A stretch of DNA of 32,000 nucleotides from Halomicrobium mukohataei DSM 12286 (GCF_000023965.1 NC_013202.1:720001-752000), one strand, 5' to 3'; positions 28,179 through 30,830 are shown, counted from the stretch's first letter. Numbers and translations are program-made. The notes: generated by a model from the sequence alone, not told the origin.

Positions 28179-29069
28179 ATGCCCACGCACCTGCTCGACG
28201 TCGACGACCTGACGACCGACGAACTGACGACCGTGCTCGACCGCGCGGCCGAGATCAAAGCCGACGGCGCGCCCGACCTCCTGGACGGGCACACCCTCGG
28301 GATGCTCTTCGAGAAGCCCTCGACGCGAACCCGGATCTCCTTCGAGACCGGGATGACCGACCTCGGTGGCCACGCGATCTTCCTCGGCCCCGAGGACATC
28401 CAGCTGGGCCACGGCGAGCCGATCAAAGACACCGCACGCGCCGTCTCGCGGTACGTCGACTTCCTGATGGCCCGGATGTTCGACCACGGCGACGTGGAGG
28501 AACTGGCCGAGTACGCCAGCGTCCCCGTCGTCAACGGGCTGACCGACGACGCCCACCCCTGCCAGACGCTCGCGGACCTGCTGACGATCCGCGAGCGGTT
28601 CGGCAGCTTCGAGGACGCCACCGTGGCGTGGGTCGGCGACGGCAACAACGTCTGTCAGTCGTTCGTGCTGGGCGCGGCGATGACGGATCTCGACCTGACG
28701 GTCGCGACCCCCGAGGGGTACGGCGTCGACGAGAGCGTGCTGGACCGCGCCGCCGAACTCGGCAGCGTGCCCGCGACGACGACCGACCCCGAGGCCGCCA
28801 TGGCCGACGCCGACGTGGTCTACACCGACGTGTGGGTCAGCATGGGTCAGGAAGACAAGCGCGAGGAGAAACTCCGGGCCTTCGAGGGGTTCCAGATCAC
28901 GCCCGACGTGCTTGGCGACCGCACGCTGATGCACTGCCTGCCCGCCCACCGCGGCGAGGAGGTCACCGACGCCGCCATCGAGAGCGACAACGCCATCGTC
29001 TGGGACCAGGCCGAAAACCGCCTGCACGCACAGAACGGGCTGCTGGCGTGGCTGTCTGAACAGGAGTAG
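28179..29069 (+). CDS. argF: ornithine carbamoyltransferase
   Basis: 296 aa from ATG 28179, 2 nt after the argE stop. FEKPSTRTRISFE (carbamoyl-phosphate site), HPCQTLADL, DVWVSMG and HCLPAHRGEE. Confidence 0.93.
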   Translation: MPTHLLDVDDLTTDELTTVLDRAAEIKADGAPDLLDGHTLGMLFEKPSTRTRISFETGMTDLGGHAIFLGPEDIQLGHGEPIKDTARAVSRYVDFLMARMFDHGDVEELAEYASVPVVNGLTDDAHPCQTLADLLTIRERFGSFEDATVAWVGDGNNVCQSFVLGAAMTDLDLTVATPEGYGVDESVLDRAAELGSVPATTTDPEAAMADADVVYTDVWVSMGQEDKREEKLRAFEGFQITPDVLGDRTLMHCLPAHRGEEVTDAAIESDNAIVWDQAENRLHAQNGLLAWLSEQE

Positions 29070-29071
29070 CA

Positions 29072-29202
29072 CCGCTCGAACGCAGTGAGAGCGGCTTTTT
29101 CACCGACGTTTTGCGACGAGTGGTTCCCGCAGCGAACGACGCGAGGCGCACCGAAGGTGGGCCTCGCAACGTGAGCGAGGAAACCCGAGGAGCAAAAGGT
29201 CG
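29072..29202 (+). terminator. T-run/hairpin module A immediately 3' of argF
   Basis: Hairpin CCGCTC(29072-77)/GAGCGG(29089-94) is followed by T5 (29096-29100). A long imperfect hairpin pairs CGACGTTTTGC (29104-14) with GCAAAAGGTCG (29192-202) around an inner GCGAGGC/GCCTCGC stem. Same architecture as 11104-11205. Confidence 0.45.
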
Positions 29203-29207
29203 CTGTC

Positions 29208-29274
29208 GGACCAGGCCGAGAACCGCCTGCACGCACAGAACGGGCTGCTCGCGTGGCTGGCCGAGCAAGAGTAG
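29208..29274 (+). pseudogene. detached copy 2 of the argF 3' end (last 21 codons + stop)
   Basis: 61/67 nt identical to 29003-29069. It translates in the equivalent frame as DQAENRLHAQNGLLAWLAEQE-stop. Differences are four synonymous third-position changes plus one codon swap (TCT Ser to GCC Ala). Confidence 0.85.
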
Positions 29275-29295
29275 GGCGGCGAGCGGAGCGAACCG

Positions 29296-29364
29296 TTTTT
29301 TCGCCCACGTTTTTCCACGAGTGGTCGCGAGCATCGCGAAGCGATCCGACGTGGAAAAAGGTGG
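29296..29364 (+). terminator. T-run/hairpin module B following argF-end copy 2
   Basis: T6 (29296-29301) is followed by the stem CCACGTTTTTCCACG (29305-19)/CGTGGAAAAAGGTGG (29350-64), 14/15 paired, enclosing TCGCGAGCATCGCGAAGCGA. Same layout as modules at 11104-11205 and 29072-29202. Confidence 0.4.
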
Positions 29365-29367
29365 CTG

Positions 29368-29424
29368 CAGAACCGCCTGCACGCCCAGAACGGGCTGCTC
29401 GCGTGGCTGTCTGAGGAGGACTGA
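29368..29424 (+). pseudogene. detached copy 3 of the argF 3' end (last 18 codons + stop)
   Basis: CAGAACCGCCTGCACGCCCAGAACGGGCTGCTCGCGTGGCTGTCTGAGGAGGACTGA translates to QNRLHAQNGLLAWLSEED-stop, against ENRLHAQNGLLAWLSEQE-stop in the real gene. Confidence 0.8.
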
Positions 29425-29470
29425 CGACGACGAACGGGGCGAGTCTCGCTCCCAGTCGACACGTCGATCG

Positions 29471-29647
29471 TCAGCGGCGGTCGGCTTCGAGCCGTCGGAG
29501 ACGGGCAGAAACGGCACCGGACAGCCCGGCGACGAGCCCGAAGAACAGGATCGCGAACCAGACGGACGAGAGATCGCCGTCACTGGCCAGAAACAGGAAC
29601 CCCCCGAACAGTTCGATCAACAGCGCAACGCCGATAGTGCGGTCCAT
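29471..29647 (-). CDS. small two-helix membrane protein (58 aa); below the ORF-track cutoff
   Basis: ATG (cat at 29645-29647) gives MDRTIGVALLIELFGGFLFLASDGDLSSVWFAILFFGLVAGLSGAVSARLRRLEADRR, then TGA (29471-29473). Most codons end in G/C. A T-rich stretch (TTTTTT) lies about 30 nt upstream on the minus strand. Confidence 0.5.
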   Translation of the reverse strand: MDRTIGVALLIELFGGFLFLASDGDLSSVWFAILFFGLVAGLSGAVSARLRRLEADRR

Positions 29648-29742
29648 CGCGGTTCGAGGAGCGAAGACGCGAAAAAAGTTCTTCTCGGACCAGCGCAGTC
29701 CGGCGGTCTCCAGTCGAAACGGTACCCTTTGTGCTCCCCGTG

Positions 29743-29823
29743 ATACGGTTTATTGTAGTTGCTTACCGGTGATCGTCGCCACGGAGTAGACGATCACCGG
29801 TAAATCGCTACAATAATCCGTAT
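29743..29823. repeat. 81-bp imperfect palindromic element, copy 2 (inverted relative to copy 1)
   Basis: ATACGGTTTATTGTAGTTGCTTACCGGTGATCGTCGCCACGGAGTAGACGATCACCGGTAAATCGCTACAATAATCCGTAT equals the reverse complement of 124-204 except for one base (A versus C at element position 10). Confidence 0.85.
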
Positions 29824-29975
29824 GAGTACGTTTGGCATCGGGTCGCCGCGGCCGAACCGTCGAATCGGCAGGCGGTCGGCGTCCCATCTGGCGGTCTCCA
29901 CCCGAAACAGTACCCCTTCGTCACCGGCGGCAAGCAACAGCAACGTTTTCCGTCGCGCCACGGCTACGGTCGACG

Positions 29976-30830
29976 ATGACCTCGGCACCCACGGCGGCGG
30001 TCGAAGCGGCCCTCGGCGGGTCCGTAGAGACGAGCGAGCGGCTGGACGGCGGGATGGTCGGAGACGTGTTTCGCGTCGAACTCGCCGACGGCCGTGTCGC
30101 GGTCGCGAAGACCGGCGAGCACGACCTCTCGATCGAAGGTCGGATGCTGTCGTACCTCGCTACGGAGTCCGACCTGCCGGTGCCCGAGGTGTATCACGCC
30201 GACGCCGAGGTGCTCTGTATCGAGTACGTGGCGGGCACGTCGACGATCACGCCGGCCGTCGAGCGCGACGCGGCGAGGCAGTTGGCCGATCTGCACCGCG
30301 TCGAGGGGCGGGCCTTTGGCTTCCCGTTCGACACGCTCACCGGCCCAGTCGCGCAGCCCAACCCCTGGACCGAGCGCTGGGTGTCGTTCTATCGGGACCA
30401 GCGGGTACGGTCGATCTGTGACCGGGCCAGTCGGGCGGGAGCGCTGTCGGACGAGCTGGCGACCCGCGTCGAGCGGGCGTGTGCCGACTTCGAGTCGCTG
30501 CTGAGCGAGCCCGAGTCCCCCGCGCTGTTGCACGGCGACGCGTGGCGGACGAACCTCCTGACCGACGGCCGGCGAGTGACGGCGTTTCTCGACCCCGCCT
30601 GTTACTACGGCCACCCGGAGGTCGAGCTGGCCTACGTCGACTGGACGGAGACGTTCGGCGACGCCTTCTTCGATCGCTACCAGCGCGAGCGCGGCGTCGA
30701 TCTCGGTGCAGCGTTCTGGGATCGGCGGCGCTACGTCTACAGGCTCTCCCCGCTGCTCGTCCACGTCCACCTGTTCGGCGACCAGTACCGCGAGGAGCTG
30801 GCCGAGACGCTGGCCCGACTGGGCTACTGA
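29976..30830 (+). CDS. fructosamine-kinase-family / aminoglycoside-phosphotransferase-fold kinase (284 aa)
   Basis: From ATG 29976: ...SERLDGGMVGDVFRVELADGRVAVAKT..., PVPEVYHADAEVLCIEYV, ALLHGDAWRTNLL (catalytic HGD..N), FLDPACYYGHPEVELAY and the C-terminal YRLSPLLVHVHLFG are typical of the fructosamine-3-kinase family. Confidence 0.75.
   Translation: MTSAPTAAVEAALGGSVETSERLDGGMVGDVFRVELADGRVAVAKTGEHDLSIEGRMLSYLATESDLPVPEVYHADAEVLCIEYVAGTSTITPAVERDAARQLADLHRVEGRAFGFPFDTLTGPVAQPNPWTERWVSFYRDQRVRSICDRASRAGALSDELATRVERACADFESLLSEPESPALLHGDAWRTNLLTDGRRVTAFLDPACYYGHPEVELAYVDWTETFGDAFFDRYQRERGVDLGAAFWDRRRYVYRLSPLLVHVHLFGDQYREELAETLARLGY

Follow-up and report, generated by a model that had tools for sequence, protein, structure and literature searches.

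Introduction

Some integrative elements carry within their attP attachment site a replacement for the 3′ end of the gene into which they integrate; e14 and phage 21 at icd in E. coli, as well as archaeal elements that target tRNA genes, are of this kind. In the mitochondrial atp6 gene of Allomyces, a foreign C-terminal region arrives together with a mobile insert, and the native end is displaced downstream. Here we analyse an arrangement of this general type in a window of 32,000 nucleotides from Halomicrobium mukohataei DSM 12286, in which argF, the gene for ornithine carbamoyltransferase, is followed by two spare copies of its own 3′ end, with a hairpin element between each copy and the next. 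Both hairpin elements are copies of a dispersed, protein-less family of nested hairpins, which we call E, and the spare ends look, from their pattern of substitution, like working ends of related lineages and not like decaying junk. The account that we favour, with modest confidence, is that two hairpin cassettes, each consisting of an E element and a copy of the argF end, entered in turn at the end of argF and were moved between lineages by recombination. New here are the junction conserved across genera and the strongly allele-like pattern of the spare ends.

Target duplications made by MITEs (miniature transposable elements with inverted repeats) measure 2-10 bp (PMC11602168), and insertions of IS1549/IS1634 are accompanied by variable direct repeats of 8-514 bp, by a mechanism that is unexplained, in a family common in Euryarchaeota (PMC2266710). 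The MITE, PATE and SMR classes of haloarchaea have been catalogued (PMC3119063), and a MITE census, which takes duplications of 2-10 bp as the defining mark, counts many unnamed MITEs in Haloarculaceae (PMC11602168). We found no description of the E family, or of long gene-end repeats, in the searchable literature.

Compared with these systems, E combines traits of several. Like the integrative elements with gene-end attP sites, it is associated with insertion at a gene's 3′ end, with a working end that would be supplied and a resident end that would be displaced, and with allele-like differences between the two; unlike them, it consists of hairpins of about 90-140 nt that encode nothing, has no second attP-like copy, and occurs at many target genes. 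With REP, BIME and REPIN sequences and with MITEs it shares a short, structured, extragenic, multicopy and mosaic or nested character, compensatory changes in its stems, a position behind genes and a possible terminator role. However, MITEs share their ends with an insertion sequence and REPINs depend on the RAYT gene that they flank, whereas we found no partner transposase for E; and while E has the inverted repeats and dispersed copies of a MITE, its flanking duplications are variable, at 23-153 nt, and not of a fixed 2-10 bp. Long direct repeats of variable length are shared with IS1549/IS1634, a resemblance in outcome only, since those elements are 1.5-2 kb long and encode a DDE transposase, and E lacks such ends. 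At Allomyces atp6, as at argF, a foreign gene end comes with the insert and the native end is kept as a spare, but the Allomyces insert encodes a homing endonuclease.

Results

The argF gene is followed by two spare copies of its own end

Coordinates without a prefix are window positions; the window corresponds to C1:720001-752000 of a two-replicon genome of 3.33 Mb, the second replicon being 222 kb. We refer to this genome as G000 and to two sister genomes as G002 and G003. The argF gene occupies 28179-29069 on the plus strand and encodes 296 amino acids before a TAG stop; the orthologues of relatives are 70-98% identical to its translation. Its last 21 codons and stop form the working end, c1 (29003-29069), which encodes a peptide ending in DQAENRLHAQNGLLAWLSEQE. 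On the same strand follow a first hairpin element, E1 (29070-29207), recognized by its membership in the E family; a first spare end, c2 (29208-29274); a second hairpin element of another subfamily, E2 (29275-29368), with an exact match to the family pattern at genome positions 749305-749364; and a shorter spare end, c3 (29369-29424). A repeat search recovers c1 as c2 at 91% identity (61/67 nt), and BLAST against the own genome finds the two spare copies, c2 and c3, with E values of 7e-19 and 4e-14, and no further copy of the argF end anywhere on the 3.33-Mb genome, whether chromosome or 222-kb replicon. All copies end in a stop codon at the same relative position (TAG at 29067-29069, TAG at 29272-29274 and TGA at 29422-29424), and the encoded peptides close with LSEQE in c1, LAEQE in c2 and LSEED in c3.

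A first-pass annotation, made from the sequence alone, had already described three argF ends, with c1 and c2 placed as above and differing by four synonymous changes and one exchange of Ser for Ala; the repeat and BLAST searches and a recount bear this out (four synonymous codons and one non-synonymous one). Its start for c3, 29368, needs moving: the third copy in register with the others would span 29358-29424, but true homology begins one base later than had been thought, at 29369 (AGAACC), so that c3 is without the first 11 nt. The same annotation noted that copies 1 and 2 are each followed by a terminator-like module of one architecture, which proves correct, and these modules can now be recognized as copies of a genome-wide repeat.

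Comparison with the sister genomes identifies the probable original end. In G003 (96% identical here), argF has one end only (GCCGAACAGGACTGA) and no element, and the sequence that follows c3 in the window comes directly after it; a native spacer at 29425-29470, between the original argF end and a convergent gene, is collinear with the sequence that stands in G003 directly after the single argF stop. G002 (97% identical) has the full stack of c1, E1, c2, E2 and c3. Since the GAC TGA of c3 and the sequence from 29425 onward match the single end of G003 and its downstream sequence, c3 is most likely the original argF end of the lineage. The suggestion that the copies are stacked scars of successive insertion or recombination at the argF end thus withstands an alignment of the locus across relatives, with one copy and no element in G003 and three copies in G002. 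In G002, a TGG has changed to TGA within the frame of c3, which is therefore decaying there, and c1 equals c2 over 61 nt, which indicates that conversion between copies also happens.

One junction recurs across genera

Among the argF loci of 19 relatives, E stands behind argF in at least nine, mostly together with a spare end. The junction between E1 and c2, GGTGGCTGCC/GGACC (the slash marking the boundary) or a close variant of it, occurs in the own genus and in eight or nine others, four of which are known by name only: the window has GGTCGCTGTC/GGACC and G002 has GGTCGCTGCC/GGACC, and junctions of this type are present in G013, G016, G010 and G024, which represent four other genera, as well as in Halorientalis salina, Haloarcula japonica, Salinibaculum salinum and a Halovenus metagenome-assembled genome (MAG). 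The interior of E differs strongly among the genomes that carry this junction. Four other members of the own genus have in common a different junction between E and the spare end, and the junction of E2 with c3, CTGC/AGAACC, was seen only in G000 and G002 among the loci compared. A second gene behaves similarly: at a hisE-like gene (C1:521578), three species of the genus and a further genus have one junction in common, and sites without the element occur in close relatives.

Spare ends differ from working ends mainly at synonymous positions

To characterize the divergence between working and spare ends, we compared c1 with c2 in the nine genomes that share the junction, which are kin and not independent samples. 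The 49 base differences fall at codon positions 1, 2 and 3 in the proportion 7/4/38, and 36 codons differ synonymously against six non-synonymously (about 86% synonymous). If one copy were constrained and the other decaying freely, the expected synonymous share would be about 36% (at most about 36-44%); the departure of the observed share from about 36% has p about 5e-11, a value overstated by the kinship of the genomes. The purifying-selection pattern that the first-pass annotation had read from the window alone is thus seen across all nine genomes together, and it amounts to the allele-like replacement gene end that is characteristic of integrative elements. The frame and stop of c2 are kept in 8/9 genomes; in G024, c2 is decaying or cut. 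At the hisE-like locus, about 13 synonymous changes (stop changes included) stand against three non-synonymous ones, as counted by eye. Differences between repeats tend to fall on the side of the element, the repeats being identical in their first part.

Divergence per site between c1 and c2 within a genome is 0.105, and between genera it is 0.19 for c1 against c1 and 0.20 for c2 against c2; c2 therefore evolves no faster than coding sequence. The last 22 codons are the most diverged part of argF between close relatives at third codon positions, where identity in the tail versus the whole gene is 78% versus 94% for G000 and G002, and 74% versus 92% for G000 and G003. We also considered whether the high third-position identity just upstream of c1 signals a recombination tract, and rejected this: identity there is equally high in genomes without the element, and is thus attributable to codon bias.

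E is a genome-wide family placed behind stop codons

Queried with 28990-29440, a BLAST search of the own genome yielded 55 matches, every one of which falls on the two intervening modules, the gene-end copies contributing none. A motif census of the own chromosome gives at least 35 full E copies at about 25 places, and a strict pattern for the long hairpin of E matches in 57/82 genomes of the own family (Haloarculaceae, as placed by the named relatives) and in 11/319 genomes of other families in the class, with a reversed-pattern control giving 0 matches over the same genomes.

At 14 places in the genome, direct repeats of 23-153 nt, for the most part 100% identical, stand on either side of E; they consist of the last codons and stop of the upstream gene plus 0-23 further bases. 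Two places hold arrays. At C1:819100-820000, on the minus strand, six E elements alternate with seven copies of the end of a glutaredoxin-like gene in units of 154-157 nt, the distal copies being progressively different and carrying in-frame indels; at C1:2825300-2825860, three 182-nt units follow a gene whose product ends in SEER. Where E has no flanking repeats, a convergent gene's stop codon mostly adjoins it, 1-4 nt past AAAAAGGTGG, and at nine such places (for example C1:474846, 979318, 1700921 and 2970016) the right end, too, lies at a gene end; in either orientation, therefore, E is found immediately after stop codons. The duplication of gene ends belongs to the E family and not to the argF locus alone: because the same family is flanked by the ends of other genes, it is the element, and not the locus, that is the common factor.

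Two further E copies have unoccupied counterparts in the sister genomes. The E copies at C1:1898205 and C1:2634885 differ from each other at 3 of about 70 positions; the former site is unoccupied in G002 and the latter in both G002 and G003. In addition, gene ends are repeated at some sites without any element: at the G002 counterpart of C1:1898205 (L036), 24 nt of the gene end are repeated twice in tandem, and in G000, an older, partial gene-end copy lies at C1:3010956-3011000, after an 84-nt repeat behind C1:3010804. Such element-less repeats may have been left by the excision of earlier elements, or by break repair in which nothing was captured.

The argF end of G002 holds more than the stack itself. 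Behind the third argF-end copy (L052, G002:C1:1487800-1491400) lie about 2.9 kb of low-GC DNA (45-60%), which end in a fourth argF-end fragment (CACGCCCAGAACGGACTGCTTGT), most like the spare copy of Salinibaculum salinum and matching it exactly over 23 nt. In this insert, the two longest open reading frames (ORFs) of each strand, four in all, gave no Pfam match at E <= 0.01, and the insert has no match to known plasmids. With this insert and its fourth fragment, the argF end evidently also anchors the entry of larger foreign DNA.

Anatomy of E

Both modules between the argF ends share one layout of a short GC hairpin, a T-run and a long imperfect hairpin, and in both the long hairpin begins with CGACG or CCACG followed by TTTT(T) and closes with AAAA(A) followed by GGTCG or GGTGG. 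In the family at large, the short GC hairpin, often with a GAGCGRAGCGAG-like loop, precedes a run of five or six T and CGCC; then come CCACGTTTTT, 4-6 variable bases, GAGYGGT, a variable perfect hairpin, ACCCGA, again 4-6 variable bases and GAAAAAGGTGG, followed by a tail of a few bases. The outer arms, CCACGTTTTT and AAAAAGGTGG, pair with each other as terminal inverted repeats. In E1, the left hairpin occupies 29072-29094, the T-run 29096-29100, the long imperfect hairpin 29104-29202 and the tail (CTGTC) 29203-29207, and a nested extra hairpin module lies at about 29141-29167; in E2, the corresponding parts are at 29277-29295, 29296-29301, 29305-29364 and 29365-29368 (CTGC). The arms of E1 are nearest to copies at C1:819100-819930, and its inner hairpin (TTCCCGCAGCGAACG with GTGAGCGAGGAAA) is also found in the argF-linked copies of G008 and the Halovenus MAG, while the arms of E2, itself also present in G002, resemble a copy at C1:1437929.

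The stems covary. Over 29 copies from several genomes, each of four inner pairs has 2-17 double-sided changes (14-17 at three of them), and the outer stem switches from CCAC/GTGG to CGAC/GTCG or CCAT/ATGG. A 381-nt stretch of the locus folds better than shuffled versions of itself (z = -3.5). A search of 28900-30000 with the curated covariance models of Rfam 15 gave no match at E <= 1. T-runs lie directly behind the stops (29096-29100, 29109-29112, 29296-29301 and 29310-29314), the A-runs of E read as T-runs on the opposite strand, and a simple terminator scan called one site; E probably also acts as a two-way transcription stop.

The second hairpin module of E1 (GCGAGGCGCRCCGRAGGYGGGCCTCG, 29141-29167) recurs in or beside E at C1:701554-701679, about C1:1698100 and about C1:2825380, so that the elements are mosaics of several hairpin modules. 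Two further readings of the hairpins were set aside. The inner hairpin of E2 is complementary at 11/13 positions to the GLLA codons of the spare copies, as a guide would be; as inspection by eye revealed nothing comparable in either E1 or the argF-linked copy of G013, we treat it as chance. An ORF running through E into c2 was also rejected: no in-frame ATG, GTG or TTG was seen in the tail of E just before c2, and the length of the element varies.

Searches for a mobilizing partner

The genome, 99.98% complete, has no match to reverse transcriptase (PF00078), which leaves E without this mark of a retroelement. The best match to the IS1634-type DDE transposase model (NF033559) reaches 34 bits, the cut-off being 100, and DDE matches are weak throughout. 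Three Y1_Tnp genes are present, two of them each beside an ORF of roughly 425 amino acids in the layout of IS200/IS605 (an assignment by layout only), and none of the three has E arms within 2.5 kb, as a RAYT partner would. The third is a solitary Y1-transposase-like gene at C1:540032-540352, with no neighbouring ORF of roughly 425 amino acids; about 1 kb downstream of it, tandem motifs resembling the hairpin loop lie at 541203-541660 with a 206-nt period. In the own genome, no pair of E arms 0.2-4 kb apart bounds a transposase, as the ends of a longer element would. No tyrosine or serine recombinase lies in the E elements, which are 93-138 nt long, and the four ORFs searched in the G002 insert are without a Pfam match; no integrase scan covered the remainder of the window.

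Neighbouring features

Downstream of the native spacer lies a small convergent ORF of 58 amino acids (29471-29647, minus strand), conserved in G003 and G002. Farther on, a 79-nt palindromic element (29744-29822, arms TACGGTTTATTGTAG) is bracketed by a duplicated TGA (29741-29743 and 29823-29825), and G003 has at the same position an unoccupied site, CCCCGTGAGTATG, with one TGA. This element has lower GC and belongs to a repeat family other than E. Around it stand the two copies, 84% identical, of a 32-nt direct repeat (29699-29730 and 29887-29918; TCYGGCGGTCTCCA..CGAAAC.GTACCC.TT), which predates the palindromic insertion, because G003, too, carries it in two copies. Upstream of the gene that starts near 29978, this repeat may represent a promoter or operator that was duplicated.

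Discussion

The argF locus can be accounted for by two layers of events, which we propose together because decay in place cannot give the synonymous bias at argF and yet fits what is seen at C1:2634885. In the first layer, E would be placed behind a stop codon with duplication of 23-153 nt, for which the candidates are widely staggered cuts, as for IS1549/IS1634, and the filling-in of staggered breaks in which hairpin DNA was captured. In the second layer, the replacement gene end, E and the first part of the spare would be transferred as one piece by host homologous recombination between related lineages, for example after cell fusion, into an unoccupied allele. One crossover would lie in argF or c1 and the other, right-hand one inside the spare copy, so that the incoming allele would become the working end and the resident end would be pushed downstream as an intact-looking spare. 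Such a transfer would leave a constant internal junction, and repeats identical in their first part and synonymously different in their last. In the window, c3 would be native, the E2 cassette would have come first, and the family-wide E1 cassette would then have entered upstream of it. Recombination between the repeats could remove a cassette cleanly, restoring the state of G003, and cassettes would turn over in this way. Somewhat speculatively, and with clearly less confidence than in the two-cassette account as such, we suggest that the cassettes are selfish DNA without an enzyme of its own, which would use its mimic of a gene end as a homology arm, home by host recombination to that gene in related species, leave the gene intact, and be lost by recombination from end to end.

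A serious competitor, although on balance we regard it as unlikely, places the whole history at the locus itself: for each E copy, a transposition-like or break-repair event, its cuts separated by 57-67 nt, would have placed the element after the argF stop and made a long target duplication, and the later differences would have arisen locally, shaped by gene conversion among the copies. Much of what is seen elsewhere suits it well, namely the perfect or near-perfect repeats of 23-153 nt around E at other genes, the unoccupied sister sites of two E copies, the neutral-looking decay of the spare at C1:2634885, the element-less repeats in G002 (L036) and behind C1:3010804 that look like excision footprints, and the G002 identity of c1 and c2 over 61 nt, which amounts to conversion; IS1549/IS1634, with variable repeats of 8-514 bp (PMC2266710), supply a precedent. 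At argF, however, duplication in place predicts a synonymous share of no more than about 36-44%, where about 86% is observed (and a similar share, by eye count, at the second locus), and the spare evolves no faster than the working copy between genera; nor was there an IS1634-family transposase above cut-off or a longer element with E ends. Plain local tandem duplication of the gene end plus a terminator, by slippage or unequal crossing-over and without any mobile element, is hardly credible. The identical-unit arrays at C1:819100-820000 and C1:2825300-2825860 do indicate that unequal crossing-over expands units once formed, but E1 and E2 differ in subfamily and in junction (GGACC versus AGAACC), which rules out unequal crossing-over as their origin, E1 is nearer to copies at other genes than to E2, and the genome-wide census already contradicts a purely local event.

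It is also improbable that the spare copies are used, whether as alternative C-terminal exons after removal of the element from DNA or RNA, or as a standby that makes excision harmless. Retention of the frame, stop and peptide of c2 in 8/9 genomes with one cross-genus junction, the strong synonymous bias, and evolution of c2 at the rate of coding sequence would all fit such a use; against it, c1 already has a stop followed by hairpins and T-runs, c2 has no in-frame start before it and an element of varying length, both c3 and the c2 of G024 are decaying or cut, and no Rfam family matches. Very unlikely, finally, are larger, integrase-bearing elements that used the argF end as attB, brought replacement ends and were lost, which the first-pass annotation had offered as one route. 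The logic of replacement ends agrees with the synonymous pattern, and the G002 insert of 2.9 kb, of low GC and located behind c3, is followed by a foreign-looking argF-end fragment. But the inserted elements have not left, being still present as E1 and E2: E accounts in full for what lies between the copies, and it stands at about 25 other places without integrases. The argF-end sequence that such an element should carry as attP was sought elsewhere in the genome and is absent from both the chromosome and the 222-kb replicon, and the four G002-insert ORFs are without Pfam matches at E <= 0.01. The other route then offered, serial homologous replacement, comes close to what we favour, with E as the agent, although entry may instead have been by a site-specific enzyme.

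Several observations weigh against transfer of cassettes between lineages. The p-value and the other statistics overstate the case, since the genomes are related. By nearest-neighbour comparison over 33-66 nt, a weak test at this length, most spare copies are nearest to the working copy of their own genome, and no donor was identified for any copy. Across genera, working copies resemble each other no more closely than spare copies do, and no recent sweep of a single cassette through the family is thus apparent. At C1:2634885, where the insertion looks recent, four changes are private to the spare copy (one synonymous, three non-synonymous) and the working copy is the relatives' allele, a picture that fits plain duplication and subsequent decay; there must therefore be a second mechanism, of a non-homologous kind. 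The near-identity of two E copies at different genes could reflect conversion rather than movement.

With these points taken into account, the two-cassette reading makes the triple argF end one visible case of a family-wide and apparently undescribed class of haloarchaeal DNA that is mobile or recombines, in a group noted for its promiscuous exchange of DNA. E lands exactly behind stop codons, and the gene is never broken. The spare ends would record alleles that met in one genome, and may thus serve as markers of recombination between species. If E stops transcription in both directions, its copies would be portable gene-boundary modules. For annotation, spare ends and hairpins of this kind would explain many of the short 'orphan' ORFs and repeats found behind haloarchaeal genes.

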